Shown: piece after piece, positions 2,684-40,237 of the stretch
How the letters are laid out: every line of letters starts with the position of its first letter
How positions within the stretch are numbered: the first letter of the stretch is position 1
Virus record (IMG/VR): IMGVR_UViG_3300045988_021153
Span: 1-41,572 of that record
From: a virus
DNA length: 41,572 bases
Reading direction: 5' to 3' (one strand)
Program-made: the position numbers and the translations under genes
The notes under the pieces: generated by a model
The model's database searches: none
What the model saw: the letters and a program-made list of their open reading frames with translations, nothing else
Told to the model about the DNA's origin: nothing

Positions 2684-2698
2684 AAGGAGTAGAAATGT

Positions 2699-2923: not shown

Positions 2924-2932
2924 AAGGAGTAC

Positions 2933-10148: not shown

Positions 10149-10150
10149 GA

Positions 10151-10189
10151 AATCACCGGAAGCGGTCATTCGCTTCCGGTGATTTTTTT
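10151..10189 (+). terminator. Intrinsic terminator (14-bp perfect stem)
   Basis: aatcaccggaagcg-gtcatt-cgcttccggtgatt followed by ttttt. Overlaps the last codons of the minus-strand repressor gene. Confidence 0.75.
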
Positions 10190-18847: not shown

Positions 18848-19357
18848 CTGAACGAGAAGATTTACAAGAGCGAGCGGGAGCTTCGCTCGGCGGTAGACCG
18901 CTATTTTGCGGCGATCTGCTACAGGGAGCCGGTGACAAGGATGGTGCCGGTGCTGGAGGATCGGGAGTTTATCAAGAACGGGGAACGGATCGTGATGCAG
19001 TGTCCGGCGCTCGACAAGTACGGGCACCAGCAGATGGCCGTGGAGACGGTGATGCGCGGCAAGAAACCGCTGATGCGCGAGGTCTGGACGCGGCCGCCGT
19101 GCCTGCCGGAGATGCTGGCGGCGCTGGGCGTGGACGAAAAGAGATGGGCGCAGATGTGCGCATCGGAGGAGCTTGGCAAAGCGTGCGCGCGCGCAGGGGC
19201 GCGAATCGAGATCTACAACATTCAGCGGCTGGACAGCTCGAACGCGAACGGCGCGAAGTTCCACCTGGAGCGGCGCTTTGGGTGGGACGAGGCGAAGGAC
19301 GGCGGAACGGATGTTGCGTTTGAGCTGCCGGAGGGCGTGGCCGGATGGGAAAAGTAA
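18848..19357 (+). CDS. terS: Terminase small subunit (start codon uncertain, possibly CTG)
   Basis: LNEKIYKSERELRSAVDRYFAAIC...PPCLPEMLAALGV...NANGAKFHLERRFGW is TerS-like. Overlaps the terL start. No in-frame ATG/GTG/TTG lies downstream of the RBS gaaaggggg. Confidence 0.7.
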   Translation: MNEKIYKSERELRSAVDRYFAAICYREPVTRMVPVLEDREFIKNGERIVMQCPALDKYGHQQMAVETVMRGKKPLMREVWTRPPCLPEMLAALGVDEKRWAQMCASEELGKACARAGARIEIYNIQRLDSSNANGAKFHLERRFGWDEAKDGGTDVAFELPEGVAGWEK

Positions 19358-20706
19358 CGATCGATCTCACGCGCATCTCCGACAAGCAGCGCCGGTTTAT
19401 GGAGGCGCAGGCGCGGTATGTGGCATACGGCGGCGCACGAGGCGGCGGAAAGAGCTGGGCCGTGCGGACGAAGGGAAAGCTGCTGGCGCTGAGATGGCCG
19501 GGGATCAAGATCCTGATCGTCCGGCGGACATACCCCGAGCTGCTGAACAACCACATTGAGCAGCTCTGCGCGGAGCTGGCAGGGCTGGCGAAGTATTCGC
19601 AGGTGCGGAAAACGCTGACCTTCCGGAACGGCTCGACGATCCGGTTCGGCTACTGCGCAACGGACAGGGACATTCTGCAATATCAGGGTGCGGAATACGA
19701 CGTGGTATTTATCGACGAGGCCGCGCAGCTCAAGAAGGAATGGCTCGACGCCATTGACACAACGGTGCGCGGCACGAATGGATTCCCGAAGCGCACCTAC
19801 TACACGCTCAATCCGGGAGGTCAGAGCCACGGATACTTCAAGCGGCTATTCATCGATCGTCTGTTCGAGAAGGATGAAAAACCGGAGAACTACACGTTCA
19901 TCCAGGCGCTTGTCACCGACAACAAGGCACTCATGGAGGCGCAGCCGGAGTATTTGCAGACGCTGCAAAAGCTGCCGGGAAAGCTGCGGCAGGCATGGCT
20001 TGAGGGCAGATGGGATATCTACGAGGGGCAGTTCTTCGAGGATTTTATAAACAACCCGGAGGGCTACCGGACGCGGCAGAACACGCACGTGATCGAGCCG
20101 TTCACGCCGGATCCGGGCTGGACGATCTGCCGGAGCTACGACTTCGGCTACGGAAAACCGTTCTCCTGCGCGTGGTGGGCGGTGGACTACGACGGCGTGA
20201 TCTATCGCATACTGGAGCTTTACGGCTGCACGGATGAGCCGAACACGGGAATCAAGTGGTCGCCGGACGAGCAGTTTGCACGGATCGCACAGATGGAGCG
20301 CGAGCACCCGTGGCTCGCTGGAAAGCAGATCCGCGGCGTCGCGGACCCGTCGATCTGGGACGCCTCGCGCGGTGAGAGCGTGGCGCAGACGGCGGCGAGA
20401 TACCGCGTTTACTTCACGCCCGGCGACAACAAGCGCATACCGGGCTGGATGCAGTGCCACTACCGGCTCCAGTTCGATGAGAACGGCTACCCGCGCATGT
20501 ATGTATTCAGCACCTGCAAGGCGTTCATCCGGACGATCCCGCTGCTGGTGTACGATGCGCACAAGCCGGAGGACCTGGACACGAGCATGGAAGATCATTG
20601 CGCGGATGAGTGGCGGTATTTCTGCATGTCAAGGCCGATCAAGCCGATGATCGCGGCGCCGGCCAAGCCGCAGTGGATCGATCCGCTGAACATGATGGGA
20701 GGATGA
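19345..20706 (+). CDS. terL: Terminase large subunit
   Basis: 453 aa. Walker A YGGARGGGKSW, VVFIDEA, and a C-terminal nuclease region. Confidence 0.95.
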   Translation: MGKVTIDLTRISDKQRRFMEAQARYVAYGGARGGGKSWAVRTKGKLLALRWPGIKILIVRRTYPELLNNHIEQLCAELAGLAKYSQVRKTLTFRNGSTIRFGYCATDRDILQYQGAEYDVVFIDEAAQLKKEWLDAIDTTVRGTNGFPKRTYYTLNPGGQSHGYFKRLFIDRLFEKDEKPENYTFIQALVTDNKALMEAQPEYLQTLQKLPGKLRQAWLEGRWDIYEGQFFEDFINNPEGYRTRQNTHVIEPFTPDPGWTICRSYDFGYGKPFSCAWWAVDYDGVIYRILELYGCTDEPNTGIKWSPDEQFARIAQMEREHPWLAGKQIRGVADPSIWDASRGESVAQTAARYRVYFTPGDNKRIPGWMQCHYRLQFDENGYPRMYVFSTCKAFIRTIPLLVYDAHKPEDLDTSMEDHCADEWRYFCMSRPIKPMIAAPAKPQWIDPLNMMGG

Positions 20707-20709
20707 GAT

Positions 20710-22461
20710 ATGCGATACCCGGAGCTTACCGCGCCGGCGCAGAGCGAGCTGGTGACGGACACCTTCGCGGGCTACAACCACAACCTGCGCATCGGGGATG
20801 GGGAGTTTTACGAGATGGAAAATCTCACATCCAGCGACTATCCCCTGCTGTCGCAGCGCGAGCGGCGGGCGACCGTGATGAGCCTTGCAGGCGTGCAGGG
20901 GCTGCTTGCAAAGGATGCGCTGGCGTGGATCAAGGACGGGATCCTGTACTACAACGGCTTATCCATGGAGCCAGCCATGTACGGTGTAACGCTGACGGCG
21001 GGAGAAAAGCAGATGGTTTCGATGGGCGCGTATATCTGCGTGTTCCCGGACGGGTGGTATTTCAACACTGAGGACGACACGGACAACGGCTTTATGGGCC
21101 GCGAGAACGCGGTGAACTGCCAGCAGACGGCGCTGACGGTCAAGGTGTGCACGGTGGACGGACAGATCATCACGATCTCGCACCGGCAGCAGGCAATGCC
21201 GGAGAATCCGGCGAACGATGCGTACTGGCTCGACACGGGCAAGCACGAGCTCAAGCAGTGGAGTGCGGTGCAGAGCCAGTGGGTGAGCATCCCGACGGTG
21301 TACGTAAAGCTGGAGGCAAACGGCATCGGAGCGGGTTTCAAAAAGGGCGACGGCGTGCAGGTGAGCGGGCTCCAAGGGACGGAGCAGGTGAAGAAGCTGA
21401 ACGGCTCGCACGTTTTGCAGGATGTCGGAGACAACCACATCGTGATCATAGGGATCGTAGACGAGGACGCGAGCCAGAACACAGGGACGGTGAAGGCCGC
21501 GCGGCGCGTGCCGAAGATGGACTACATCACGGAGAGCGGGAACCGGCTCTGGGGCTGCCGGTACGGCGTGTCGGACGGAAAGACGGTGAACGAGCTGTAC
21601 TGCTGCAAGCTGGGCGACTTTAAGAACTGGGAGTGCTATCAGGGCGTGGCAACAGATTCCTGGCGCGCAAGCTGCGGCTCGGACGGGCGCTTTACGGGCG
21701 CGGCCACGCTGGCGGACAGCCCGATCTTTTTTAAGGAAGACTGCTTCCACCGCGTTTACCCGAGCGCGCAGGGCGCGCACCGTGTCGTGGAGCAGAAGGC
21801 TCGCGGCGTCCAGCGCGGCAGCGAGCGAAGCCTCACGGTGATCGCGGACAGGCTCTATTACAAGGCGCGAGACGGCGTGTGCGTTTACGACGGCTCACTC
21901 CCCTATCTGATCTCCGACGCCTTCGGAACGGAGCTGTACCGCAGGGCTGCCGCAGGCGGCGCGCGCGGGAAGTATTACATTTCGATGCAAAATGCGCAGG
22001 ACATATGGGAGTTATTTGTCTACGACACGCTCAAGGGGCTGTGGCACCGGGAGGATGTGCTGCATATCACGCAGTTCGCGGCGCTGGACGACGAGCTTTA
22101 CATGCTGCGAGACGATGGGACGCTCATGACGGCATACGGAAGCGGCGGGACGCTTGAGGATGCCGTGGCATGGAGCGCGACGAGCGGGATCATGACCTGC
22201 GGTCTGACGGGGAAAAAGTACATTTCGAGGCTGAATCTCCGGATGCAGCTGCCGGTCGGAAGCCGATGCGACTTCTGGATCGAGTACGACTCCGGCGGGC
22301 AGTGGGTGCACGCCGGGCACATGGAGGGATGGGGGATCCGGACGTTCCTGCTTCCGATCCGGCCGCAGAGATGCGACCATCTGCGGTTCCGCATGACGGG
22401 CAAGGGGCCGATCAAGCTATTCAGCCTCAGCCGCATTCTGGAAAGCGGCAGCGACGCATAA
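20710..22461 (+). CDS. Hypothetical 583-aa virion-module protein (repeat/propeller-like?)
   Basis: RBS gggagga. Tightly packed between terL and portal. Repeated strand-like segments (YYISMQN..WELFVYDTLKGLWHRED; DDELYMLRDDGTLMTAYG). Confidence 0.7.
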   Translation: MRYPELTAPAQSELVTDTFAGYNHNLRIGDGEFYEMENLTSSDYPLLSQRERRATVMSLAGVQGLLAKDALAWIKDGILYYNGLSMEPAMYGVTLTAGEKQMVSMGAYICVFPDGWYFNTEDDTDNGFMGRENAVNCQQTALTVKVCTVDGQIITISHRQQAMPENPANDAYWLDTGKHELKQWSAVQSQWVSIPTVYVKLEANGIGAGFKKGDGVQVSGLQGTEQVKKLNGSHVLQDVGDNHIVIIGIVDEDASQNTGTVKAARRVPKMDYITESGNRLWGCRYGVSDGKTVNELYCCKLGDFKNWECYQGVATDSWRASCGSDGRFTGAATLADSPIFFKEDCFHRVYPSAQGAHRVVEQKARGVQRGSERSLTVIADRLYYKARDGVCVYDGSLPYLISDAFGTELYRRAAAGGARGKYYISMQNAQDIWELFVYDTLKGLWHREDVLHITQFAALDDELYMLRDDGTLMTAYGSGGTLEDAVAWSATSGIMTCGLTGKKYISRLNLRMQLPVGSRCDFWIEYDSGGQWVHAGHMEGWGIRTFLLPIRPQRCDHLRFRMTGKGPIKLFSLSRILESGSDA

Positions 22462-22471
22462 GGAGGGAAAG

Positions 22472-24346
22472 ATGGAAAAAGACACGGGCATGACGCGCAT
22501 CACGGATGTGCTCGGCGCCGACGGAGCGGGCGATGCCATGCAGCCGGTCGGCGTGGCGCAGATCCGCACGGCGATGGAGACGCTCGAACAGTACAAGGCG
22601 AAGAAGGACGCGCTGGAGCAGCGCGTGATCGCCTCGGAGCAGTGGTGGAAGATGCAGCACTGGCAGAGAATGGACCCGAGCGGGAATCCATACGACCCGC
22701 AGTGGCGGTCGGCATGGCTGTTTAATGTGATTATGGGTAAGCACGCCGACGCGGTCGCGGCCTTCCCGGAGCCTGCAATCCGGCCGAGGGAGCCGGACGA
22801 CCGCGCGGAGGCCGGCATGCTGACATCCATTGTGCCGGTGATCCTCGAACAGAACGACTTCGAGGAGGTGTACTCCGATTCGTGCTGGACGAAGATGAAG
22901 CAGGGCACGCTGATCTGGGGCGTGTTCTGGGATGCTGGGAAGCTGAACGGGCTGGGTGACGTCTCCGTGAAGGAGATCGACATCCTGAATCTGTTCTGGG
23001 AGCCCGGCGTGACGGACATCCAAAAGAGCCGGAATCTGTTTTACACGGAGCTGGTCGACAACGACATCATCCGGCAGCGATACCCGCAGGTCGGAGACAG
23101 TCTCAAGGGGGACGGGACGTTTCTTGCGAAGTACAAGACGGACGATCAGGTGGACACGTCGAACAAGTCGCTCGTGGTGGACTGGTACTACAAGAAGATC
23201 GTGGACGGGAAAAGCGTGCTGCACTTTTGCAAGTTCGTGGGCGAGACGGTGCTCTCGGCGACGGAGAACGACCCGAACATGCAGGCGGGGCTTTACGACG
23301 ACGGGGACTATCCATTTGTGATCGATGCGCTGTTCCCGGTGAAGGGATCGGTTGCCGGATACGGCTACATCGACATCGGAAAAAGCGCACAGGCGCAGAT
23401 CGACCTGCTCAATCAGGCGATCATCAAAAACTCGGTGATGGCGTCCACGCCGCGCTGGTTCGTGCGGAACGACGGAAGCATCAACGAGAAGGAATACGCG
23501 GACTGGCGGAAGCCTTTTGTCCACACGGACGGAAATCTCGGGCAGGACTCCGTGCTGCCGATCACGGTCACGCCGCTATCGGGGAACTACATCAACGTCA
23601 TCCAGAACAAGATCGAGGAGCTCAAGTGGACGACCGGCAACACGGACGTGAACAACGGCTCGGTTTCCTCCGGCGTGACGGCAGCGAGCGCGATCGCCGC
23701 CTTGCAGGAGGCGTCCGGGCGGAGCTCCAAGGACGCGACACGATCGGCGTACCGCGCATACGCGCGGCTCATCCGCATGGTGATCGAGCGCATCCGGCAG
23801 TTTTACGATCTGCCGCGCAAGTTCCGCATCCGCGGGCAGCTCGGGACGGAGGAATACGTTACGTACTCCAACCAGAATCTCAAGCAGCAGGAGATGCTCG
23901 GGCTCGGCGGCGACGCCGTGTGGCGAAAGCCGGTTTTCGACATTGAGGTGTCCGCGCAAAAATCCTCGGAGTACACGAGGCTCAGCCAGAACGAGCTGGC
24001 GCTACAGTTCTATCAGCTCGGCTTCTTCGATCCGGCGCGGACGGATCAGGCGCTGGCGACGCTCGACATGATGGACTTCGACGGAAAGGACGAGATCAGC
24101 CAGAAGATCGCGCAGAACGGGACGATCCAGCAGGAGCTGGCAAAGTGGCAGGAGATGGCGCTGGCGCTCGCGGAGCGGTACGACCCGGCCATGGCGGACG
24201 GGCTGGCACAGCAGATCATGGGAGCGGGCGGCGCGGCGCAGCCGGTGGCCGGAGGAAGCGCGGCAGGAATGCCGAACGCAGAGGCAGAGGCAAAGAATGT
24301 GACGGACGCGCGCGAGCAGGCGCAAAAGAGCACGCAGCCGGAATGA
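22472..24346 (+). CDS. Portal protein (podovirus head-to-tail connector type)
   Basis: 624 aa. RBS aaggaggg. Position is before the scaffold and capsid genes. Acidic, flexible C-terminus. Confidence 0.85.
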   Translation: MEKDTGMTRITDVLGADGAGDAMQPVGVAQIRTAMETLEQYKAKKDALEQRVIASEQWWKMQHWQRMDPSGNPYDPQWRSAWLFNVIMGKHADAVAAFPEPAIRPREPDDRAEAGMLTSIVPVILEQNDFEEVYSDSCWTKMKQGTLIWGVFWDAGKLNGLGDVSVKEIDILNLFWEPGVTDIQKSRNLFYTELVDNDIIRQRYPQVGDSLKGDGTFLAKYKTDDQVDTSNKSLVVDWYYKKIVDGKSVLHFCKFVGETVLSATENDPNMQAGLYDDGDYPFVIDALFPVKGSVAGYGYIDIGKSAQAQIDLLNQAIIKNSVMASTPRWFVRNDGSINEKEYADWRKPFVHTDGNLGQDSVLPITVTPLSGNYINVIQNKIEELKWTTGNTDVNNGSVSSGVTAASAIAALQEASGRSSKDATRSAYRAYARLIRMVIERIRQFYDLPRKFRIRGQLGTEEYVTYSNQNLKQQEMLGLGGDAVWRKPVFDIEVSAQKSSEYTRLSQNELALQFYQLGFFDPARTDQALATLDMMDFDGKDEISQKIAQNGTIQQELAKWQEMALALAERYDPAMADGLAQQIMGAGGAAQPVAGGSAAGMPNAEAEAKNVTDAREQAQKSTQPE

Positions 24347-24415
24347 GAATCGGACGCGCATGGCGCGACGAGATAAATTTAAGGGGTCGCCCACCGACGG
24401 GCAGAAAGGAGCAAC

Positions 24416-25282
24416 ATGCTTCACAGATCTATTTTTCAGTTTTTCGCCGCCGATGACGGCGGCACGGGCAGTATTGCGGCAGTCGCCCAGCCGGACGCGA
24501 GCAGCGGCCAGAACGGGGCAACCGGAGCGCCGGAGGCAGGCCAGACAGCACCCGTCGCTCAGGTGCAGCAGGCAGAGAGCTTTGAGGATCTGATCAAGGG
24601 CAGGTACAAGGCAGACTACGAGCGCAGCGTGAAGGCTGCCGTCTCGGAGCGGCTCAAGGGCACCAAGCGCACAATCAGCCGCTTCTCCCCCATTCTCGAT
24701 GTGCTGGGGCAGCAGTACGGCATCGACGTCTCCGATCCGGAAAAGATCGACTATGACGCGCTGACCAGAATGCTGACCGACGACAAGCGGCTCTATGAGC
24801 AGGAGGCTCTGGAAAAGGGCATCCCGCTGGAGACCCTGATGCACATGAAGCAGGTGGAGCGGCAGAACGCGGCGCTGCAGCGCGAGAACGCGGCAGCGCA
24901 GGGCGAGATGCAGCGGCGGGCGGAGTTTGACCGCATCGTCGGAGAGTTCGCGGAGGTACAGGCGCTGTACCCCGGCGCAGATCTGGCGGTAGAGCTGGCA
25001 AACCCGAGCTTCGGACGGCTCGTCTCAAACGGCGTTCCGGCGCGCACGGCTTATGAAGTCCTGCACCAGCAGGAGATCAATGCCGCGCGGACGCGCATGG
25101 TCGCGCAGGCGGCGCAGCAGCAGGCCGTGGCCGGGATTCAGGCAAACGGCATGCGCCCGCAGGAGGGCGCGGCAAACGCAGGCGCCGGAGTCCCTGTACA
25201 GTTTGACCCTCGAAAGCTCACAAAACAGCAGCGCGAGGAAATTCGCGCAAGGGTGAGACGGGGCGACAACATCGTTTTGTAA
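24416..25282 (+). CDS. Scaffolding protein
   Basis: 288 aa, alpha-helical, Q/E/A-rich, lying between portal and capsid. Confidence 0.65.
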   Translation: MLHRSIFQFFAADDGGTGSIAAVAQPDASSGQNGATGAPEAGQTAPVAQVQQAESFEDLIKGRYKADYERSVKAAVSERLKGTKRTISRFSPILDVLGQQYGIDVSDPEKIDYDALTRMLTDDKRLYEQEALEKGIPLETLMHMKQVERQNAALQRENAAAQGEMQRRAEFDRIVGEFAEVQALYPGADLAVELANPSFGRLVSNGVPARTAYEVLHQQEINAARTRMVAQAAQQQAVAGIQANGMRPQEGAANAGAGVPVQFDPRKLTKQQREEIRARVRRGDNIVL

Positions 25283-25302
25283 GCCCCGGGAAGGGAGCAT
25301 AA

Positions 25303-26379
25303 ATGAAACTTTTTGGCAAGGCATTTCAGGTATTTTTCGCGCCGGACGCAGGTACGCTCGTCAACGCGACCGATACCTACGTAAACGCATACACGGGCGA
25401 GAAGACGGCGTTCTCGGCGCCGAACGATCTTTCGTCCACGATGAAGACCTACTACGACACGGAGCTTCTGGAGAACGCGCGGCCGAATCTGATCCACGCG
25501 CAGTTCGCTCGAAAGCAGCCGCTGCCGAAGGGCCGCGGCAAGAGTGTCGAGTGGCGCAAGTGGAACACGCTGGCGGATGCGCCGGCACTGCAGGAGGGCG
25601 TGATCCCGACAGGCCAGAAGCTCGGCCAGTCGAGCATGACGAGCGCCATCGTTCAGCACGGCACCTACGTCACGGTGTCCGACCAGCTGGAGCTGCACGC
25701 GATCGACAACGTGATCCTCGGCGCGACCGAGGAGCTTGGCGCATCGGCGGGCACCACGCAGGACAAGCTCGTGCGCGACACGCTGGCGGCCGGCACGAAC
25801 GTCCAGTACTGCGACAAGGTCAGCGAAGATGGCGCACACACAAAGGTCGAGAGCCGCGCGACGATGGACAAGACCTCCCGCCTGACGCCGACGGAGGTAA
25901 ACAAGGCCGTCACCACGCTCAAGAAGCTGAAGGCCCCGAAGATCAGCGGCAAGTATGTCGCCATCATCCATCCGTCCGTTACGTTCGACATCCGAGAGAA
26001 CAAGGACTGGATCGAGGCGCACAAGTACGCCGATGTGACGCCGCTGTTTGACGGCGAGATCGGCGAGCTGCACGGCGTGCGCTTCATTGAGACGACGGAG
26101 GCAAAGATTTGGTGCGACAGCACCTGCCCGACGAAGACCGGCGGCAACCTCTGCGTGTACTCCACGCTGTTCCTCGGCAAGGACGCATTCGGCATGATCG
26201 ACCCGGAGGGCGGCGGCCTTGAAATGATCATCAAGAGCAAGGAGCAGGCAGGCGGCCCGCTGAACCAGTTCAGCACGCTCGGCTATAAGTTCTCCACCGC
26301 GACGAAGATCCTGTATCAGGAGCGCATGGTGCGCGTGGAGAGCACTTCCGCCTACTCGGAGACGGACGAGAAAAACTAA
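25303..26379 (+). CDS. Major capsid protein (N4-gp56-like, HK97 fold)
   Basis: 358 aa. YYDTELLENARPNLIHAQFARKQPLPKGRGKSVEWRKWNTL matches my memory of the N4-gp56 capsid family signature. Confidence 0.85.
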   Translation: MKLFGKAFQVFFAPDAGTLVNATDTYVNAYTGEKTAFSAPNDLSSTMKTYYDTELLENARPNLIHAQFARKQPLPKGRGKSVEWRKWNTLADAPALQEGVIPTGQKLGQSSMTSAIVQHGTYVTVSDQLELHAIDNVILGATEELGASAGTTQDKLVRDTLAAGTNVQYCDKVSEDGAHTKVESRATMDKTSRLTPTEVNKAVTTLKKLKAPKISGKYVAIIHPSVTFDIRENKDWIEAHKYADVTPLFDGEIGELHGVRFIETTEAKIWCDSTCPTKTGGNLCVYSTLFLGKDAFGMIDPEGGGLEMIIKSKEQAGGPLNQFSTLGYKFSTATKILYQERMVRVESTSAYSETDEKN

Positions 26380-28399: not shown

Positions 28400-28602
28400 T
28401 GGTAAGAGAGGTAAAAACGCTGCGGCGGAAGGTCGCCGAGGCGCTGAATGAATCAAAGCTGCCGCCGGTCGTGGCGCAGCTGGTGCTCGACAGCATTCGG
28501 ACGGAGCTGCAGAGCATCGTGCAGATGCAGGAGGCGGCGGAGGCGGTGGCGCCGCCGGAGGAGAAGGAGGCAGAGGACGATGGCTCTTTACAGGGTAAAT
28601 GA
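28396..28602 (+). CDS. Small hypothetical virion-module protein
   Basis: 68 aa, with ATGA overlap to the upstream gene. Confidence 0.5.
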   Translation: MMVREVKTLRRKVAEALNESKLPPVVAQLVLDSIRTELQSIVQMQEAAEAVAPPEEKEAEDDGSLQGK

Positions 28603-29713: not shown

Positions 29714-29723
29714 GGAGAACGAG

Positions 29724-32700
29724 ATGGCAAAGAAACGGACAGGACTGGATGCGCTCCGGGAATATGAGGCGAGAAGCGGACGGCAGACGCAGAGCGAGAG
29801 CCAGCCGGCAGAAGACTCCGGCGGCACGTGGCGCAGCGGCCTTGACGCGCTGCGGCAGTTCGAGGCAAACGGCGGCGGGCAGAACGTCAAGAACGGCCCG
29901 TATAATCCGAACTACCGAACCATGACGCGGGCTATGTATGAGTCGGCGTATGAGCGATACAAGCGCGCGGCGGAAGCCCAGGAACGCTACAGCCGCGCGG
30001 CGGACGCCGTGGGCAACAATCCGGTCGGCGGGTATCTGCGGGCGATGCAGCAGCGGCAGCCGCAGGGCCGCGCCGCGAAAACAATCGACCATGATCAGCA
30101 GAGCGGGTACCGGCGGACACGTGAGGTCAAGTCGGCACAGGTGCAGCCGACGATCGAACATGACCAGCAGAGCGGGTATCTGCGGACGCTGCGCATGAAG
30201 GGCAGCGCGGAATATCTGACACAGTCTCAGGAAGATCCGGAATGGGAGACGGTGCGGCAGGATCAGGCGCGCGGCGGGAAGCGGACGCAATACGAGATGC
30301 GGCGGCAGATCGAGCAGCTTGAAAGGGCGCGGGACTATGCGCTTTCGATGCAGGCCGGAGACCCGGAGGGGCTTCCGGAGCTGCGCGGGGCATACGAGGC
30401 GGTGAACGCCGGGCGCACAAAGCCGATGACGCTGACGGAGATGGACGAGGCGCTGCGGGAAATGAAGGTCAGAAAGCAGAACGCCGCGACGCTGGCGAAC
30501 GAGGCCATGACCGCGCAGGAGCTTGAACGGAAAAAGGATGCGATCTATGCACTGGCCTTTTATCCGGAGGAATGGACGCCGGAGCAAAAGCAGGCGGCGA
30601 GAGGCATTCTCGAAACGCAGCGCGGCGGGAGCGGAATTTTCGGCGGCATGGACCGCGCACCATATGCCTTCGCGCCGTACATCGAGGCGGTGCGGAGCGG
30701 AGACATGGACCGCGCGGACGAGTGGGAGCAGATCTACAACATGCTCTACTCGCGCCTTTTTGAGAAAACAACGGCGGTCACCGAGGGCTTCGCGGAGGGA
30801 CTTGGGCTGCGGTCGGCAGAGAAGGTCATCGGAGCGGCAACGGGCGCGGAGAATCCAGCATGGGAGGCATACATGCGCTCGGTGCAGGTGGCAAAGGCGC
30901 AGAATCCGGCGCTGAGCGCGGGCGGACAGATCGCAGGCTCGCTTGCGCTGATGGGCGGCATCAGCAAGGGCGTCGGCGCGGCAAGCGGTGCGCTGCTCGG
31001 AACGAAGGCGGCACAGTTCGGGACACTCGGCAGGACGGCGCTTTCGATGGGCCAGTCGGCGCTGACGTTCGCGGCGAGAGAGGCCATTCAGGGAGCGGGC
31101 GCGGTGGCGACCGGAGAGAAGACCGGCGGCGCATACGCGCAGGACATCCTCGCAAGCGGCGCGGGCGGCGCGGCCGGTGCGCTCGTATCCGGGCTTATCT
31201 CCACGAACATGGCAGACTGGCTGAGAAGAACAGGAAACAGCAAGCTGTTCTGGGAGTTCGTGCGGCAGAGCGCGAGCGCATACGCCTTTTCCGGCACGAG
31301 CGTTGCAACAAGCGCGATGCTCGGGAGCGAGAAAAAGAGCGCGAACGAGATCGCGACGGAGCTTGGAACGGCCTTCCTGTTCTCGCTCGTCAGCGGATAC
31401 ATGAACACGATGCGCGAAACCAAGATGGCGAGCGCAGCCGTGGAGCAGAAGTACGAGACGATTTCACAGCAGCTGGACGCAATCGGAAAGCACCTTGACG
31501 GCGGCAGGAAATTCAGGACGGAGGAGGAATTCACGCAGGCCGTCGAGGATCTGCGCAGGACGGTGCAGGGCCTCAAGGCGGATGTGCAGGGAACATACTA
31601 CGCAGGACAGCAGGACTTCGTCAATCAGATGGTGGCGGCGCTCGACCGCATCGACTACAACCTGCTTTCGATGCTCCCGGGAGCGGATGCCGGAACGGCA
31701 GCAGCTTCGGCGGCCTCGACGGCGGCAGCCGGGACAGGCGGCGTGGCTGCGGCAGAAGCACAGAAGCTGATGCAGGAGGCGTCCGCGGCGCTGGCAGAGG
31801 GCACACAGGGCGTGCCGACCGCACCGGTACAGCCGGGGGATGCAGGCGGGAAGGGCGCGGCAGCGGCGGCACAGGCGCTCACAGAGGGCACGACGGCAGC
31901 AGAGCAGGCGGTGCAGGTGCCGCCGGCACAGCCGGCGATGCCTGTTCCACCGGATATGGCGAAGGAGGCCGAAGCTGCACAGCGGGAGGCGAACTTCCAG
32001 ACGCACAGCAGGTACGCAGAGGAGCGGGACGCGCGGGCGCGGGATGCGGAAGAAGTGTCGCAGGCGCGGGCGCAGGAATACACAGAGGCGATCAACGACG
32101 CGGAGGCGGACGCAGCAGATGCGGCTTTTGAGAAACTGAACAAGGCGGAGGTCAGCGGCGCATTGGACGCGCAGACTCGCTGGCAGGCAGAGGATGCCCG
32201 TGCGGAGCGGCAGTTTGAGGTGGAAAGCCGTGAGGACACGGACCGGGCGCTGAGCGAGGCTGCGCAGCGGTACGGCTATGACGAGCGGATGACGAGCGTG
32301 CTGCTTTCCGGGTACAGCGGGGCGCAGAGCACGCAGCAGTACGCCGAGGCAGTGAACGCGGCTTACGAGTACGGCAAAAGCGGAATGAGCCGCACAGCGG
32401 CGCAGAGAGCCGCACAGGGCATTGACAAGGCACTGGCAGACGAGGCGTGGAGCGCCGGAAAGGAGATTGCAAATGGCGAAAAAGCAGGAGCCGCGCGTAT
32501 TGATGACGGCGGCAAACGGAATGCAGGTATGGATTCCGGAAAGCCGGTTGGAGCAGTGGCAGGCGGCGCAGGCGGCACAGCGGCGCGATCCGCAGCGGGG
32601 CGCGCAGTCGCGGAGAGAATTGGCCTCGAAAATCGCGTCAGCGCTGCTGGGCAGCCGTACCTGAGCGGAAAGGACATCGGGCTGAGCAAGGGCTCTGCAC

Positions 32701-35700
32701 AGCGGAGCTTTCGCGAGGCGCCGCAGAGCACATGGACCGACGGCATGAAGGCCGCCGCCGAGACGCTCCGGAGCGCTGGCTTTGCGGATGTGCATTTCAC
32801 GGTGGGCTCGATCAGCGTGGAGAACCAGCGGGCGAAGGTCACGCGGTACGCAGACGGCGTGGCCGCAGGAAATTCGGTATGGGTGAATGCGACGGCGAAG
32901 AAATGGAGCGTTCAGCAGCTTGCAGACCACGAGTCGTTCCACCGGCAGGTGCAGGACGCACCGGGACTGCTGGACAGCGTGCGGGCGGTTGTGGCAGACG
33001 AGCTGGGAGATAGCGGCATTCGGGAGCTTGCACAGCGGTATGCCGAGGCATACGAGGGCTGCTATGACGGCGCGGAGCTGGAGGCGTACATCGAGGAGAT
33101 CTGCGCGGACGCCTACGCAGGCATGGACCGGTTTCCGGAGGAGAAGGCAAAGATCATACAAAAAGCCGCCCAGCGGGCGCAGGACGCGCAGCAGGCGGCA
33201 GAAGAAAACGGCGGGACCAGAGGCCCGCCGGAGAAATATAGCTATGCAGGAGAGCTCGCGCGAACGGCTGACAGCAAGTCTTTGGCCCGCGCGGAACAGA
33301 TGGAAGAAAACGGCGCTTCGGCGGAAGACATCTTCCGGGAGACCGGATGGTTCAAGGGTGCCGACGGGCAGTGGCGGTTCGAGATCGACGACAGCAAGAT
33401 GGAGTTCCGCAGAGACGGTGATGTCCGGCTGATGGAGGAAGAACCGTACCGCAGGATGCAGGAGCTTTCTGACAAGTGGGCTGCCAGCTTTGAAAAAGGC
33501 GGCGAGGAACTCACGGAGGCGGAAAACGCAGAACTGGAGGCACTTCAAGATCAATACGTTGATCGAGTATGGGAAGAAAAATATGAGCTTCAGGACTTCC
33601 TGAAGCACGACGATCTTTACAGAGCATATCCGAAGCTGCGGCATATGTCGCTGATATTCCGGCCGATGTCCATTGAGAATTATGGCTATTACTCGCCGAA
33701 GGATGGCGCGATTGTGATGAACAGCGACCTGATCGGTGCTCCGGAAAAAACGCTCATTCATGAAATTCAGCACATTATTCAGTCCATGGAGGGATTCGCG
33801 CGAGGCGCAAGCCCGAAATACTGGAATGACCGCATGGAGGAGGGCTTCTCGAAAAAGAACGCCGCAGGCGAGGAGATGCTACCGAACGAGCTTTACAGGA
33901 ACACAGCCGGTGAGATCGAGGCGCGGGACGTGGCAGAACGTCGGAATCTGAGCGCGGAGGAACGCCGAAACCGGATGCCGGATACGGGGAATGCCGATAC
34001 GGTGTTTGCAGAGGCTGGATGGCAGACTGCGATGGACTACGACCCGGAAACAGCCAGCATCAAAGAGCAGGTCGAAAATAGCCGCGAGGCGCTTAACGCG
34101 ATGGATGTGGTTGCGCGGGCGTCCGTTCCGACAAATCTTAAAACCAAGGATTCGGCTGCCGCATGGGCGGCAGAGCGGCTGAAAAGCACAGGATACCGCA
34201 TAGACCGGCAAGGGTACGGCGAAATCTATTTCAGCAAGAAGGATATGGACAAGGGGCTTCGGTACGCCGATACGGCGGAAGAAAAAGCAGCACTTGCCGT
34301 ATTACCTCAAGTGCTGAAGCGAGGAATTGAGATCGGAGACCACGCAAACCACAAAAATAGAGCGAAGCAGACGGTGACGTTTGCGGCGCCTGTGGAGCTG
34401 AATGGAACGCGTGGAAACATGGCTGTGGTCGTAAACAGAAACGGCAACCACTATTATGCTCACCGGATCGTCATGCCGGACGGAAGCGTATTTCGCTTTT
34501 CAGGGAATGCAGAAAATGCAGCGCAAGAACTGTCCCGGGGAGTGACCGTTTCCGGATCTCTTGCCGACACCACAAGCGCTGCATCTACGGACAGTATACG
34601 CAGATCAGAGCGGGAAAGTCAAGAAAAATTTTCTGCATCTGAGGAAGTGTCGGAAGCCGACGCCGGGGCGGAGGGGTCGGAGCTTCAGGTCGAGAAGCTG
34701 CCGCAGGCGAACCGGGATCAGTTTATGCGCTTTGCAACGAAGATCACGGACGATCTTGTCACGCCGCTGACTGCGCAGATGGAAACGCTGCGGAAGGAAA
34801 TGCGCCCGCGCGTGCTGGAGCTGGTGGACGAATTTCTGGAAAACGACGCGCTGAAAAGGTCCTCGGTCAATGCGATCTTTGAAGAAGCGTATGACCGCGC
34901 GCTGGAGCTAAACAGGGAGTTCTCCGAGAAGTACGCGACGCTGCAATACACCATCCGGAAAACTCCGGTCACGTTCACGGAGGAGGACACGAGACAGATC
35001 GAGCAGTACGACTATTTCGATGAAGCAGCGCTGCGGAAGCTGACGATCAAGGAAAAGGGCGGGGCGAGCATCGGTGAGCTGTATTCCGATCTTTCCGGGA
35101 TGCTGCCGGAGCTGTTCCCGTCCGGAATCAAAAATCCGGCGAAGCAGATCATGCGGATCGCGAGCGTTTACAAGCGCATCAGCAAGGCACAGGCGCTGGC
35201 ACAGCAGGTGGACAGCACGAACCCGGAATACTTCCGAGAAAATGCGTACAACGAATTTTTGGAGCAGCTGCGAAAAATCGTGCCGAAGATGCGAACAGAG
35301 CGGGAGCTTGCGCAAATCAACATCGAGGAAGAAGCGAAGATGGAAGCCTATATGGCGGAGCGCGAGAGAAGGATCGCGGAGGAGGATGCGAGACTGGCTG
35401 AGGAAGAAGCCGCAAAGGCTCCGCCGGAGGTCTTTGAAAGCCTGACGATGGACAGCATCCCGAAGAAAGCGCAGGACTATCTGCGCAGGGTGCGCGGGCA
35501 GACGGCGGCGGCGATCCAGCAGACGCTTTCGATGCCGTTTGCGGCGCGGCAGGAGGTGCTCAAGCCAGCCCTTGAGGGCATGATGAACGAATATCTTCAG
35601 ACCGGCAGGATCTCGCAGGAGACGATAGACAGGAGCTTTGAGGAATCGTACAGGCGCGGCGTGGAGATGGACACGGAATTTTACGACGAGTACAAGGACG

Positions 35701-38700
35701 TGAAGACGCGGCTGCGCGATCTGAAGGTCACGCTGTCGGAGACGGATCGGGCGGACATTGCGGACTTTGACGATTTCCGCAGGGCGGCATTCGGGAGGCT
35801 GCGCATTGCAGACGAGGGCGGCCTGCCGGTGGACACTGCCTACAACCAGATGCGGGAGATGGCGCCGGAGCTGTTCCCGGCGGGCATCACGCATCCGGCG
35901 GATCAGCTGATGCAGATGTTTGAGGTGTCCAAGCGCATCGAGAGGGTGCAGCGGTCACTGGACGAGTTCCACGGGGAAGAAGCAGAGGAATTTAAGCGCT
36001 GGGCCAAGAACGACTACGAGGCGAGCGTTGAGAACATGCTGGGCTCGCTGCGCGTGGCGCGGCGGTATGCCGAGGCGCGGATGCGGCAGAAGCAGGCGCG
36101 GGCCGTGCCAACGACGCTGGATGAGGTCAAGGCGCTGCACACAGAGCTCAAGAAGCTGCGCCGGACGTATGAGCGGGCGGCGGCCAAGAACCTGCTGACG
36201 GCGGAGGACAACAATGTCCTAAACAAACTGCTGCGCGGCGATCTCGCGTCGGAGGACGTGCAGGGCATGGAGAACGCAAAGGGCATCCTTGCCATGTACG
36301 AGGCCAAGGCAGACTATGACGAGACGGCTGCCAAGATCGCGGACTGGCGGCGCTATCAGAAGGCACAGAGGCTCGCGGTCGCCGATGCGGCGCTTAAAAA
36401 CGCGGATCAGGCGAAGGACAAAGCCGCCGGCATCCAGTACAGCCGGGAGACGATGACGCGCAATGTCCGGGACATCTTCCCGGAGGCGGACGCGGAGATC
36501 ATCAACAGGACGTACTTTGAGCCCGTCCGGACGGCCAGCGCGAACGCGAATAAGCTGAAAAACCAGCTGCGAGAGCAGGTCAAGGCGCTGGACTTGAGCC
36601 GGAAGGTCAGGACGGGAGACGCCGTGAGCGAGGCGCATGCGGTGCAGCTGCTGGGCGAGGCGCAGGACAACATCCGGTATCTCGAGCAGCACCCGCGGGC
36701 GCAGGACCGGGACGGAAAGACGCTCGATGAATGGCACGCAATCGTGCGGGATCTGTGGGCCACGAGCCCGGGTCTGGACAGGGCGAAGATCGAAAACGCC
36801 GTGGAGACGTTCCGGAAGATCTATGACGGACTCTTTGAACAGATGAATGACGTGCGCGTCCGAAACGGCTATGAGCCGATCAACTACCGGCAGGGCTATT
36901 TCCCACACTTCCAGCCGGGGACGACGGACGGCATTCTTGGGCTGATGGGAAAGGCGCTCGGCATCGACGCGGAGGTATCGGCCCTGCCGACGACCATCAG
37001 CGGCCTGACGCACACCTTTAAGCCTGGTATCACCTACTTCGGGAATGCGCTGGAGCGCATCGGATTTGACACGGCGTATGACGCGGTGGAGGGCTTTGAC
37101 AAGTATGTGGAGGGCGCGGCGAGCGTGATCTGCTACACGGACGTCATCCAGAATCTGCGGGCGCTTGCGCAGCAGGTGCGATACCGAACATCGGACGAAG
37201 GACTGCGGGAGCGGGTGGACGACGTCCGGGCCAGAGACGATCGGACCGAGAACCAGAAGGAACTGGAGATCGAGGCGATCATGAAGCAGGGGCGCTTTTC
37301 GCTTTCGAACTTCGCGATCGAGCTGGACGAATACACAAATCTGCTGGCAAACAAGAAAAGCAAATACGACCGAGCCGTGGAACACCTTACGAATCGCAAG
37401 GTCTACAAGCTGCTCAAGGCGTGGCAAAGCCGCGTGGCGGCGAACATGGTCGCGGTCAACCCGGCGTCGTGGCTGACAAACTTCGGCGTCATCACGCAGG
37501 CAGGAGCACAGCTCAAGACGACATCCGTGCTCAAGGCGATGGGACAGACGCTCAAGGGATGGACGAAAGACGACGGCTTTGTAGAACGGAGTTACTTCCT
37601 CGTAAACCGGCGCGGAAGTGATCCGCTTGTCCGCACCTGGCAGCAGAGCGCGAGCGCGGTACTGTCAAAGCCGATGGACTGGATCGACACGTTCTCGGCG
37701 GACACCATTGTCCGGGCGCGGTACATGGAGAACATCGCGCGCGGCATGAGCGAGGAGGAGGCGATGCGCGAGGCGGACGACTTCGCGGCAAACGTGATGG
37801 CAGACCGCTCGAAGGGCGCGATGCCGACGCTCTTTGAGGCCCGCAATCCGTTCGCGAAAATATTTACACAGTTCCAGCTTGAGGTGAACAATACCTTCTC
37901 GTATCTTTTCAAGGACCTTCCGCGCGATATGCGAAAGAAGGGCATGTTCGCACTGGCCTATGCGCTTTTTAAGTTCCTGATCGGTGGGTACATCTACAAC
38001 GAGGTGTACGAGCACTTCATCGGGAGACGGACAATGCTCGACCCGCTGGGGATCGTCAACGACACGGTGGGCGATCTGACGGGGTACGAGCTCAACAATC
38101 TGGCGGACGCGGCCATGGGCGGCGGACTTATCAAGGAGTCGGAGCCGGAGAGCGTGATCAGGAGCGTCGCAAATCTCGCTGTAAACGTCGGGCAGGAGCT
38201 TCCGATGATCGGAAGCCGAATCGGCGGGGGTAAGTATCCGTTTATGAATTCGTTCGGTGATATTGGAAACGCCATTGATGCGCTTGATGCGGAGAACAAG
38301 ACGGGCGGAGAGAAGGCCGCGCAGGCGGCAAGGGAGCTGATCAATCCGGCGGCATACTGGCTGCTGCCGTTCGGCGGCGGGCAGGTCAAGAAAATGTGGC
38401 AGGGCATCAGCGCCCTGAAGCGGCAGGGCAGCTATACGGCGGACGGGCGGATGCAGTATCCGATCTACACCGACCGGAAGGGCGACATGGCGAGCGCAGT
38501 CGCACGAACAATGCTGTTCGGCAAGAGCGCGACGCCGGGGGCGCAGGCGTGGGTCGAGGCGGGTTTCGGCGCACTGAGCGAGAAAGCCACGCAGACGTAT
38601 GAGGCGATGCGCGCCGGTGGCGTTGACCAGAGAGACAGCTATGAGCTTATCAAGGCCATGTCCAAGATCAAGAAGACCGACGACGCGACAGCGAAGGAAC

Positions 38701-39278
38701 TCAAGATGCAGATGCTGCTGTCCTTTGACATCGAGGACAGCGGGAAGGTGCTGTACTACTACAACATGATGGCGAGCGACAAGGAGCGGGCACAGATCGA
38801 CAAGCTGCTGGAAGCCGGCGCGGACGTGGGAGAGTATCTGAGATACATTCAGGCGGCCGCCGGGGTGACCGGCGAGAAGGACGCCGACGGCAAGACGATC
38901 TCCGGAAGCGTGAAGGACGAGACGCTCCAGCTGATCGATGGCCTCGATCTGACGCCGGAGCAGAAGACGGCGCTTGCTGCGGACAGCTACACGATGACCG
39001 GGTTTGAGCCGTGGACGGAAAACCACGACAGGCTGTACAAGGCCGTTTCGACCGGAAAGGACCTGCGCAGCACGCTCAAGGAGCTGGAGAAGGCCGGATA
39101 TGAGCCGAAGGAGATCCGCGCGGCAATCACGGAGATGTTCCGCGATGAATATCTTGCGGCAGACAAAGCCGGGAAGGCACGGCTCAAGGGATACCTGCGA
39201 AACGCGTTCATGGCGTGCGGGCTTTCCAAGAAGGAAGCGGAAAACAAGATCAAGAAATGGGAGGAGGCACAGAAGTGA
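29724..39278 (+). CDS. Giant polyvalent virion/ejection protein (3,184 aa)
   Basis: One uninterrupted ORF with RBS aaggaga. Gly/Ala hydrophobic segments. Two HExxH motifs (HESFH at 32928..32942; HEIQH at 33759..33773). A nuclease/LPD-like module (about 34200..34500). A duplicated 161-aa module. A tape-measure-like C-terminal third. Confidence 0.9.
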   Translation: MAKKRTGLDALREYEARSGRQTQSESQPAEDSGGTWRSGLDALRQFEANGGGQNVKNGPYNPNYRTMTRAMYESAYERYKRAAEAQERYSRAADAVGNNPVGGYLRAMQQRQPQGRAAKTIDHDQQSGYRRTREVKSAQVQPTIEHDQQSGYLRTLRMKGSAEYLTQSQEDPEWETVRQDQARGGKRTQYEMRRQIEQLERARDYALSMQAGDPEGLPELRGAYEAVNAGRTKPMTLTEMDEALREMKVRKQNAATLANEAMTAQELERKKDAIYALAFYPEEWTPEQKQAARGILETQRGGSGIFGGMDRAPYAFAPYIEAVRSGDMDRADEWEQIYNMLYSRLFEKTTAVTEGFAEGLGLRSAEKVIGAATGAENPAWEAYMRSVQVAKAQNPALSAGGQIAGSLALMGGISKGVGAASGALLGTKAAQFGTLGRTALSMGQSALTFAAREAIQGAGAVATGEKTGGAYAQDILASGAGGAAGALVSGLISTNMADWLRRTGNSKLFWEFVRQSASAYAFSGTSVATSAMLGSEKKSANEIATELGTAFLFSLVSGYMNTMRETKMASAAVEQKYETISQQLDAIGKHLDGGRKFRTEEEFTQAVEDLRRTVQGLKADVQGTYYAGQQDFVNQMVAALDRIDYNLLSMLPGADAGTAAASAASTAAAGTGGVAAAEAQKLMQEASAALAEGTQGVPTAPVQPGDAGGKGAAAAAQALTEGTTAAEQAVQVPPAQPAMPVPPDMAKEAEAAQREANFQTHSRYAEERDARARDAEEVSQARAQEYTEAINDAEADAADAAFEKLNKAEVSGALDAQTRWQAEDARAERQFEVESREDTDRALSEAAQRYGYDERMTSVLLSGYSGAQSTQQYAEAVNAAYEYGKSGMSRTAAQRAAQGIDKALADEAWSAGKEIANGEKAGAARIDDGGKRNAGMDSGKPVGAVAGGAGGTAARSAAGRAVAERIGLENRVSAAGQPYLSGKDIGLSKGSAQRSFREAPQSTWTDGMKAAAETLRSAGFADVHFTVGSISVENQRAKVTRYADGVAAGNSVWVNATAKKWSVQQLADHESFHRQVQDAPGLLDSVRAVVADELGDSGIRELAQRYAEAYEGCYDGAELEAYIEEICADAYAGMDRFPEEKAKIIQKAAQRAQDAQQAAEENGGTRGPPEKYSYAGELARTADSKSLARAEQMEENGASAEDIFRETGWFKGADGQWRFEIDDSKMEFRRDGDVRLMEEEPYRRMQELSDKWAASFEKGGEELTEAENAELEALQDQYVDRVWEEKYELQDFLKHDDLYRAYPKLRHMSLIFRPMSIENYGYYSPKDGAIVMNSDLIGAPEKTLIHEIQHIIQSMEGFARGASPKYWNDRMEEGFSKKNAAGEEMLPNELYRNTAGEIEARDVAERRNLSAEERRNRMPDTGNADTVFAEAGWQTAMDYDPETASIKEQVENSREALNAMDVVARASVPTNLKTKDSAAAWAAERLKSTGYRIDRQGYGEIYFSKKDMDKGLRYADTAEEKAALAVLPQVLKRGIEIGDHANHKNRAKQTVTFAAPVELNGTRGNMAVVVNRNGNHYYAHRIVMPDGSVFRFSGNAENAAQELSRGVTVSGSLADTTSAASTDSIRRSERESQEKFSASEEVSEADAGAEGSELQVEKLPQANRDQFMRFATKITDDLVTPLTAQMETLRKEMRPRVLELVDEFLENDALKRSSVNAIFEEAYDRALELNREFSEKYATLQYTIRKTPVTFTEEDTRQIEQYDYFDEAALRKLTIKEKGGASIGELYSDLSGMLPELFPSGIKNPAKQIMRIASVYKRISKAQALAQQVDSTNPEYFRENAYNEFLEQLRKIVPKMRTERELAQINIEEEAKMEAYMAERERRIAEEDARLAEEEAAKAPPEVFESLTMDSIPKKAQDYLRRVRGQTAAAIQQTLSMPFAARQEVLKPALEGMMNEYLQTGRISQETIDRSFEESYRRGVEMDTEFYDEYKDVKTRLRDLKVTLSETDRADIADFDDFRRAAFGRLRIADEGGLPVDTAYNQMREMAPELFPAGITHPADQLMQMFEVSKRIERVQRSLDEFHGEEAEEFKRWAKNDYEASVENMLGSLRVARRYAEARMRQKQARAVPTTLDEVKALHTELKKLRRTYERAAAKNLLTAEDNNVLNKLLRGDLASEDVQGMENAKGILAMYEAKADYDETAAKIADWRRYQKAQRLAVADAALKNADQAKDKAAGIQYSRETMTRNVRDIFPEADAEIINRTYFEPVRTASANANKLKNQLREQVKALDLSRKVRTGDAVSEAHAVQLLGEAQDNIRYLEQHPRAQDRDGKTLDEWHAIVRDLWATSPGLDRAKIENAVETFRKIYDGLFEQMNDVRVRNGYEPINYRQGYFPHFQPGTTDGILGLMGKALGIDAEVSALPTTISGLTHTFKPGITYFGNALERIGFDTAYDAVEGFDKYVEGAASVICYTDVIQNLRALAQQVRYRTSDEGLRERVDDVRARDDRTENQKELEIEAIMKQGRFSLSNFAIELDEYTNLLANKKSKYDRAVEHLTNRKVYKLLKAWQSRVAANMVAVNPASWLTNFGVITQAGAQLKTTSVLKAMGQTLKGWTKDDGFVERSYFLVNRRGSDPLVRTWQQSASAVLSKPMDWIDTFSADTIVRARYMENIARGMSEEEAMREADDFAANVMADRSKGAMPTLFEARNPFAKIFTQFQLEVNNTFSYLFKDLPRDMRKKGMFALAYALFKFLIGGYIYNEVYEHFIGRRTMLDPLGIVNDTVGDLTGYELNNLADAAMGGGLIKESEPESVIRSVANLAVNVGQELPMIGSRIGGGKYPFMNSFGDIGNAIDALDAENKTGGEKAAQAARELINPAAYWLLPFGGGQVKKMWQGISALKRQGSYTADGRMQYPIYTDRKGDMASAVARTMLFGKSATPGAQAWVEAGFGALSEKATQTYEAMRAGGVDQRDSYELIKAMSKIKKTDDATAKELKMQMLLSFDIEDSGKVLYYYNMMASDKERAQIDKLLEAGADVGEYLRYIQAAAGVTGEKDADGKTISGSVKDETLQLIDGLDLTPEQKTALAADSYTMTGFEPWTENHDRLYKAVSTGKDLRSTLKELEKAGYEPKEIRAAITEMFRDEYLAADKAGKARLKGYLRNAFMACGLSKKEAENKIKKWEEAQK
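34698..35180 (+). repeat. Internal protein-level repeat, copy 1 (aa 1659-1819 of the giant ORF)
   Basis: Aligns colinearly with copy 2: ...EEAYDRALELNREFSEKY...MLPELFPSGIKNPAKQIMRIASVYKRI. Confidence 0.8.
35457..35939 (+). repeat. Internal protein-level repeat, copy 2 (aa 1912-2072)
   Basis: ...EESYRRGVEMDTEFYDEY...MAPELFPAGITHPADQLMQMFEVSKRI. Same 161-aa length as copy 1, with diverged DNA. Confidence 0.8.
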
Positions 39279-39643: not shown

Positions 39644-40237
39644 ATGAAAATCGAGATCCCGGAAAGCGTGAGGGTGACGATCCACGGGCTGATCTCGCGC
39701 GGGATACAGGCCGTGGAGGTGTCGGACGCGGGGCATCTGATCTTCACGCTGACGGACGGCGAGAAGATCGATCTCGGAGACATCCGAGGCCCGGAAGGGC
39801 CAAGGGGAGAAGCCGGACCGCAGGGGCCGGCCGGACGCGACGGCGCAGACGGAAAGGACGGCGAGACAGGCCCGCGCGGGCAGCCAGGGCCGAAGGGCGA
39901 CAGCTTCCAGACCGTGGTGGAGGACGACGGAAATGGCAACATCACCATCCGGGCGCTGACGACCGAAGGGACCGGAACGAGCGGGCAGAACGGATACACG
40001 TTCACGCCGTCCGTCAGCGCGGAGGGCGTTATCAGCTGGACGAACGACGGCGGGCTCGTGAATCCGGAGCCCGTGAACATCAAGGGACCTGCCGGAGCGA
40101 ATGGGCAGCAAGGGCCTGCGGGAACGAACGGAAAAACGCCGGTGAAGGGGACGGATTATTTTACGCAGGCAGACAAGGAGGAGCTTGTGCAGGCGGTGCT
40201 GGCAGCGCTGCCTAATGGAGACACGGAGGCGTATTGA
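39644..40237 (+). CDS. Collagen-like tail fibre protein
   Basis: G-X-Y runs: GPEGPRGEAGPQGPAGRDGADGKDGETGPRGQPGPKGD and GPAGANGQQGPAGTNGK. Confidence 0.8.
   Translation: MKIEIPESVRVTIHGLISRGIQAVEVSDAGHLIFTLTDGEKIDLGDIRGPEGPRGEAGPQGPAGRDGADGKDGETGPRGQPGPKGDSFQTVVEDDGNGNITIRALTTEGTGTSGQNGYTFTPSVSAEGVISWTNDGGLVNPEPVNIKGPAGANGQQGPAGTNGKTPVKGTDYFTQADKEELVQAVLAALPNGDTEAY

Follow-up and report, generated by a model that had tools for sequence, protein, structure and literature searches.

The window analysed here is the whole of a 41,572-nt stretch of viral DNA (IMG/VR virus record IMGVR_UViG_3300045988_021153, positions 1 to 41,572), in which one giant gene at 29724..39278 (+) encodes a predicted polyvalent protein of 3184 amino acids (aa). 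The open reading frame (ORF) starts with ATG, 6 nt downstream of a Shine-Dalgarno sequence AAGGAG (29712-29717), and runs without an internal stop. The first and last 141 nt of the window (1-141 and 41432-41572) are identical, which looks like an assembler overlap, and the contig therefore appears to be a complete circular genome of 41,431 bp. The giant ORF occupies 23.0% of it, in agreement with the first-pass annotation of this DNA, which had described a single uninterrupted ORF covering 23% of the genome. A collagen-like gene starting at 41099 crosses the circular junction.

A search covering 5.8 billion proteins, in which relatives were counted at E<=1e-5, revealed 425 relatives of the giant protein; the 120 listed among them range from 2,521 to 3,422 aa, with many of them on contigs of about 41 kb. 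An artefact in which several genes were joined by an assembly or sequencing error is virtually inconceivable, and can be regarded as excluded, because these 120 long ORFs come out of independent assemblies and because the sequence of one of them (P0004) turns up unchanged in 37 blocks of the collection, for instance on a 41-kb contig covered 3911x. Furthermore, the backbone is kept in frame along its whole length among relatives. The peptides quoted in the first-pass annotation were all found in the translation: ADHESFHRQ (aa 1067-1075) and LIHEIQHIIQSMEGFARG (aa 1344-1361), which span the only two HExxH motifs of the protein (aa 1069 and aa 1346), and YGEIYFSKKDMDKGLRY (aa 1498-1514) and NHKNRAK...MPDG (aa 1542-1587), which belong to the module it had flagged.

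Our Pfam analysis identified two domains, LPD23 (aa 1172-1228, 2e-25, 88.7 bits against a cut-off of 27) and LPD3 (aa 1474-1578, 2.7e-6, 28.0 bits and thus just over the cut-off of 27), both of which were defined from polyvalent proteins (Iyer et al. 2017, PMC5512222). With at least two catalogued domains in one large polypeptide, encoded by a phage behind the TerL, portal and capsid genes and ahead of the fibre genes, the giant protein is assigned on its domain content to the polyvalent proteins of Iyer et al. 2017, as the first reading had proposed. Relatives carry ART-PolyVal, MuF_C, PBECR5, PBECR3 and ddrB-ParB domains, and 15 distant giant relatives showed polyvalent-type domains only. 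The significant Foldseek matches in BFVD were all parts of giant viral polyvalent proteins, the top two on contigs labelled Podoviridae. The module at aa 1498-1587, earlier likened to barnase/EndoU/RelE-like or LPD modules, proved to be an LPD module (Pfam LPD3), but the barnase/EndoU/RelE (BECR) fold was not shown: no PBECR family matched it in Pfam, and its confident AlphaFold2 (AF2) model found only non-significant NTF2-like matches in the PDB. The remaining ~2,700 aa matched nothing in Pfam, PHROGs or NCBIfam, and Pfam searches with eight backbone segments at E<=5 returned noise only. Likewise, neither phmmer with the whole protein against PDB sequences nor megablast against 50,697 phage records gave a match, and when the N-terminal 1,172 aa and the C-terminal 1,284 aa served as tblastn queries against the phage collection, the uncultured, unannotated faecal phage contig MT835607 was the only match.

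Comparison of the 120 relatives mapped onto the query revealed that the protein consists of a conserved carrier interrupted by one hypervariable cargo slot (aa 1174-1637). Most of aa 500-1172 and 1600-3184 is common to nearly all of the 120, whereas the stretch from aa 1173 to about 1600 is common to only ~11 of them. Among the 119 proteins from which the slot region was extracted, at least 22 architectures were found, each with one to three sub-modules; related phages, which the first-pass annotation had proposed to compare for variable modules, thus do differ in the modules they carry. The modules include the Pfam families ART-PolyVal, MuF_C, PBECR5 and LPD3 as well as LPD23 followed by an HExxH region. 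In the window the slot holds two units. Cargo unit A (aa 1172 to about 1440; 33237..34043, +) consists of LPD23 and then the second HExxH region, and phrog_13543 covers aa 1288-1374 of it; cargo unit B (aa 1441-1637; 34044..34634, +) contains LPD3 (34143-34457, +), modelled by AF2 at a predicted local distance difference test score (pLDDT) of 85-97. Unit A has about 85 homologues and unit B about 43. At third codon positions, the GC content of units A (0.66) and B (0.55) is lower than that of the backbone (0.75-0.82), and the cargo is thus compositionally foreign.

The borders of the slot are sharp at the DNA level. Identity between the window and the relative L004 is 94.8% up to nt 3516 of the gene (aa 1172), after which the two are alignable again only from aa 1908, and 96% identity to the relative L002 ends at gene nt 4913 (aa 1637). 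The left border, K-Y-S-Y at aa 1171-1174 in the context GPPEKYS/YAG (33234..33245, +), is where the identity to L004 ends, and the right border, K-F-S-A at aa 1635-1638 in SQEKFS/ASEE (34626..34637, +), is where that to L002 ends; an acidic disordered linker follows the latter, and both lie in linkers with pLDDT<50. These two are the only copies of the motif [KR][FY]S in the window protein. In the relatives, the motif, embedded in a predicted disordered linker, is found at every module border, with 317 copies inside the variable region and 6 outside, against a shuffled expectation of 0.19 per 1000 aa, and it is present too in relatives at about 20% identity. Taken as results of sequence comparison, the slot structure and the domain class are well supported.

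The N-terminal backbone (aa 1-939; 29724..32540, +), which has no Pfam match, begins with a charged helical part with short internal repeats and continues through a Gly/Ala-rich block into an Ala/Glu-rich low-complexity linker; two alternative N-terminal types occur among relatives. The repeats lie in aa 1-160 (29724-30200) and comprise RTGLDALREYEARSG / RSGLDALRQFEANGG and TIDHDQQSGYRRT / TIEHDQQSGYLRT, the second pair being visible also as an off-diagonal blastn match between gene nt 427-464 of the window and gene nt 358-395 of L002 and L004. By composition, the Gly/Ala-rich, weakly hydrophobic block extends over about aa 380-560 (30861-31403, +). Of the two Gly/Ala-rich hydrophobic segments reported in the first reading, the N-terminal one is real (23 Ala and 21 Gly in aa 401-500), but in the last third the enrichment is less marked, with aa 2801-2900 containing 14 Gly and 12 Ala. 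The cargo slot is followed by a tandem pair of diverged helical units at 34671..36113 (+), R1 (aa 1650-1889) and R2 (aa 1890-2130), which share 28% identity (E=9e-33). R1 is optional among relatives and missing from L002 and L004, and coverage by the 120 relatives for this reason falls to 99 at aa 1851-1900.

The C-terminal backbone (aa 2130-3184; 36111..39275, +) is conserved in 239 relatives. Its 1,055 aa, the last of the protein, hold more than 100 invariant columns across 82 sequences with identity down to 43%. The AF2 model of this part consists of helices throughout (pLDDT 74.8; predicted template modelling score 0.62), one of them hydrophobic (aa 2740-2759; 37941-38000, +), and it matched no PDB fold, the best Foldseek-PDB hit (E 0.24) being to transporters. 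In relatives of the C-terminal part, the region upstream of it again contains ART, MuF_C, PBECR3 or LPD domains. Apparently short relatives are mostly fragments, and one form of 1,837 aa, on a 36-kb contig, is without the N-terminal 1,172 aa. The region 8296-14671 of L006 (ERZ27297661 k141_145388) holds a more distant relative of the C-terminal carrier (1,556 aa), with a 155-aa CHAP peptidase before it and a serine recombinase after it, and because this relative ends a different structural operon, the carrier domain is present in more than one phage architecture.

The two HExxH domains are unrelated to each other. In the first (32577..33215, +; AF2 pLDDT 90-98), the residues H, E, H, Y, G, E, D, A, A and G are invariant in 17/17 sequences down to 25% identity, and the domain was found in 431 clusters, mostly of proteins of 2,000-4,000 aa. 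The window copy matched nothing in Pfam, the PDB or Foldseek-PDB, and among relatives there was one weak match to Tox-MPTase2 (E=0.003). The second motif, HEIQH (aa 1346-1350; 33759-33773, +), lies in unit A, always follows LPD23 and is accompanied by a conserved GEIEARD about 60 residues downstream. Its region, for which the AF2 model is of low confidence, has a weak IrrE match (E=0.08), and some homologues match the Pfam families DUF6782, SprT-like or eCIS_core near threshold. A peptidase function is plausible for both domains, with indirect support from the invariant motif in the first and from the borderline matches of homologues in the second.

Upstream of the giant gene lies a head module (19345..26379, +) recognized by PHROG matches. 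The late operon, all genes of which are co-oriented, begins with a small terminase weakly similar to P22 gp3 and continues with TerL (19345-20706, +; 453 aa), a 583-aa protein (20710-22461, +), the portal (22472-24346, +), a 288-aa protein (24416-25282, +) and the major capsid protein (25303-26379, +). Portal and capsid protein were assigned by PHROG, and their orthologues in relatives match Pfam P22_portal/SU10_portal and Phage_capsid_3, respectively. Four proteins without a match then precede the giant gene, which is followed by collagen-like fibre genes, the nearest at 39644..40237 (+, PHROG), a 633-aa protein and an Amidase_2 endolysin. NCBIfam gave nothing for the giant protein or for four of its neighbours. 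The 583-aa protein matches phrog_511 ('internal virion protein', 7.9e-65) and nothing in Pfam, NCBIfam or the PDB; it is conserved in every relative examined and might be packaged as well. Just upstream of the giant ORF, a 68-aa ORF (28396-28602, +) overlaps the start of the gene at 28448-29713 (+); the counterparts of the two in relatives are annotated with 67 aa and 378 aa in different frames, which may reflect an ambiguous start site or a programmed frameshift.

A tyrosine integrase (6750..7808, -; Pfam Phage_integrase, 1.5e-11) marks the phage as temperate, and in view of this integrase, the P22/SU10 type of the portal and the Phage_capsid_3 type of the capsid protein the phage is not T7-like, as was assumed at first. 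The portal and major capsid protein named in that first account were upheld by homology, as were TerL and the fibre gene downstream, but scaffold, adaptor and nozzle found no homology support. Its statement that tail tube, sheath and chaperone genes are missing agrees with our searches of Pfam, PHROGs and NCBIfam, which returned no homologue of these or of a tape-measure protein for either the giant protein or its neighbours. The position of the gene fits the order known for ejection proteins, and the portal type and these negative searches suggest that the phage is likely short-tailed. In a tblastn search with the portal, Bacillus phage PK1 emerged as one cultured relative (25% identity); it has a different capsid protein and is sparsely annotated.

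The host is probably a member of the gut Clostridia (Oscillospiraceae), as suggested by the names of metagenome-assembled genomes (MAGs) on cargo homologues, a relative in Dysosmobacter welbionis and a gene remnant in a Clostridiales MAG. This 181-aa remnant was the only find in a scan of a genome collection for the giant gene; it corresponds to the last 181 aa at 93% identity and lies at 9992-10537 of a 207-kb contig (L001; URLO01000001.1, Clostridiales bacterium UMGS1113), and no ORF of at least 150 aa enters it from the upstream side. The fragment is either what remains of a prophage or a chimera of binning, and it hints at the host.

We consider it reasonably probable that the giant protein is a head-packaged carrier with an exchangeable effector bay, that is, a polyvalent internal virion protein of a temperate, probably short-tailed phage with a P22/SU10-type portal. 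According to this model, the conserved carrier would hold one cargo bay whose modules are swapped between phages by recombination at borders marked by the [KR][FY]S motif in flexible acidic linkers; the protein would be packed in the head and ejected with the DNA into the host, where it might be cleaved and its effectors might reach targets that include host defences. Self-processing by a metallopeptidase has been proposed for polyvalent proteins (Iyer et al. 2017, PMC5512222). A virion role is supported by the place of the gene in the late operon between head and fibre genes and by two precedents: gp47 of the Stx phage phi24B, a protein of 2,811 aa with LPD domains, was seen in virions and has been put forward as an ejection protein (bioRxiv 10.64898/2026.04.10.717836), and N4 virions carry a virion RNA polymerase (vRNAP) of ~3,500 aa that is ejected.

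Several observations weigh against this model. Packaging in virions is inferred for this family, and no similarity could be detected between the backbone and T7 gp14-16, the P22 ejection proteins, phi24B gp47 or any PDB entry. There are only two hydrophobic windows, at aa 475-494 and aa 2740-2759, both marginal with Kyte-Doolittle maxima of 1.4-1.5, and Pfam detected no peptidoglycan hydrolase domain in the giant protein. Neither HExxH region matches a solved zincin or metallopeptidase fold in the PDB or by Foldseek-PDB. The putative adaptor and nozzle proteins matched nothing in PHROG, NCBIfam and PDB sequence searches. The term tape-measure/ejectosome-like used in the first-pass annotation described composition only, as no link to either class was found in Pfam, PHROGs, NCBIfam or the PDB.

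The late-operon place after head-completion genes and before fibre genes, and an all-alpha backbone with Gly/Ala-rich hydrophobic stretches, would also suit the tape-measure protein of a long-tailed phage with embedded effector domains, which would determine the length of the tail and, like T5 Pb2, be the first protein ejected. Such a role is nevertheless unlikely in view of the lack of tape-measure, tail tube, sheath or chaperone matches already described, the P22/SU10-type portal, the small terminase resembling P22 gp3 and the Podoviridae labels of the two top BFVD matches. Tape-measure proteins scale at ~1.5 Å per residue, so that 3184 aa would correspond to a tail of about 480 nm. Moreover, the comparable 41-kb prophages of LM41, which have an 8-kb ORF, are podoviruses by prediction, and podovirus-like particles were released by the culture (PMC11318856).

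It is likewise improbable that the protein is a phage-borne polymorphic toxin, whose modules would be used by lysogens against competitors and not as infection aids. ART and BECR-like RNase cargo are typical toxin domains, the polymorphism of cassettes set off by a demarcating motif resembles such systems, and MuF toxins of temperate phages are a described family (Jamet et al. 2017). The hallmarks of that family, however, were not found here: Pfam detected no Phage_Mu_F domain, the variable part is internal and not C-terminal, and there is no separate gene after the cassette that could confer immunity, because the ORF runs on for another 1,500 aa. The cargo of the window itself (LPD23 with HExxH, and LPD3) is not evidently toxic. 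We regard as very unlikely a non-structural giant protein of early or replication-associated function that stays unpackaged and whose place in the late operon is incidental. The backbone shows no homology to structural proteins, which would be compatible with it, but the gene has the same orientation as the morphogenesis genes and is closely spaced among them in every relative examined, phi24B gp47 has been found in virions, and polyvalent domains are characteristic of delivered proteins (Iyer et al. 2017, PMC5512222).

A head-packaged carrier with an effector bay would be a protein of an already known kind, with phi24B gp47, the N4 vRNAP and the LM41 8-kb ORFs as precedents. The polyvalent proteins catalogued by Iyer et al. 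2017 (PMC5512222) resemble it in their very large multidomain build, virion-gene context and HExxH domains, in the shared domains (LPD23 and LPD3 here; ART-PolyVal, MuF_C, PBECR and ddrB-ParB in relatives) and in mosaic domain shuffling, described there for H. pylori jhp1044. Unlike them, the present protein has a conserved carrier of ~2,700 aa without a catalogued domain, and its variation is confined to one [KR][FY]S-bounded slot; no such border motif appears in that paper under linker, cleavage-site or cassette terms. The phage phi24B is also temperate and short-tailed, and its gp47 is likewise a giant polyvalent protein, in which LPD domains are combined with a metallopeptidase; proteomics detected it in virions, the cryo-EM map did not show it, and it was suggested to act as an encapsidated ejection protein (bioRxiv 10.64898/2026.04.10.717836). 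It differs in its Gram-negative host, in the place of its gene at the end of the genome map and not between head and fibre genes, and in having no reported cargo-slot polymorphism, and neither BLASTP nor hhalign detected sequence or profile similarity between the two.

A likeness in host and genome, drawn by description, is to the prophages phi1 and phi4 of Clostridium clostridioforme LM41, which are ~41-kb temperate prophages of gut Clostridia, predicted podoviruses with podovirus-like particles seen by electron microscopy, and carry 8-kb ORFs of ~20% of the genome with LPD3 similarity; these ORFs are mentioned in passing, with no domain map, slot or motif described (PMC11318856). The N4-like vRNAP (about 3,500 aa), counted among polyvalent proteins by Iyer et al. 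2017 (PMC5512222), is also giant, resides in a podovirus capsid and is expelled into the host with other ejection proteins, but the protein described here has no RNA polymerase domain and, by tblastn with its two terminal parts against the phage collection, no sequence similarity to it. With T7 gp14/15/16 and P22 gp7/20/16 it shares a similar gene position after head and putative tail-base genes, a mostly helical build with flexible regions and the presumed role of getting DNA across the envelope. Those systems differ in using three polypeptides and not one and in infecting Gram-negative hosts and not a Firmicute; no homology to them was found in PHROGs, Pfam, NCBIfam or Foldseek-PDB, and there is no lytic transglycosylase domain here. 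In polymorphic toxins, a short demarcation motif marks the boundary of module exchange, such as VENN in CdiA and DPxGL in Rhs. The [KR][FY]S motif may be viewed as analogous, except that it flanks every internal module and lies inside a protein of a phage structural operon. A single slot set off by a motif, and the breadth of cargo exchange among near-identical phages, are not described in the literature compared.

Polyvalent proteins are thought to deliver a first strike against host defences, and almost none has been studied experimentally. The family described here offers a natural experiment, in which, across phages of 80-96% identity, one bay of a constant carrier is filled with at least 22 different payload combinations, and the contrast of constant carrier and variable bay could pinpoint what belongs to the delivery machinery and what to the effectors. 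Together with the invariant HExxH domain, the border motif suggests a concrete, testable model of payload release. Members of the family are plentiful in human gut metagenomes and in Oscillospiraceae, for which little is known about phage-host biology, and the slot could guide the engineering of phages that inject chosen proteins.

Variation was also observed elsewhere in these genomes. A 503-aa gene beside the integrase (8421-9932, -) encodes SWIM and Mrr_cat_2 (restriction endonuclease-like) domains, and in relatives genes for ToxN, RloB or SLFN/AlbA_2 lie near the integrase end (L002 25783-26295; L005 25106-28505), which suggests that this end is a variable defence or accessory island. In L004 and L005 (1-935), TerL is called as 520 aa and its end is overlapped by a 170-aa HNH_3 endonuclease gene, absent from the window, which may be a homing endonuclease insertion.

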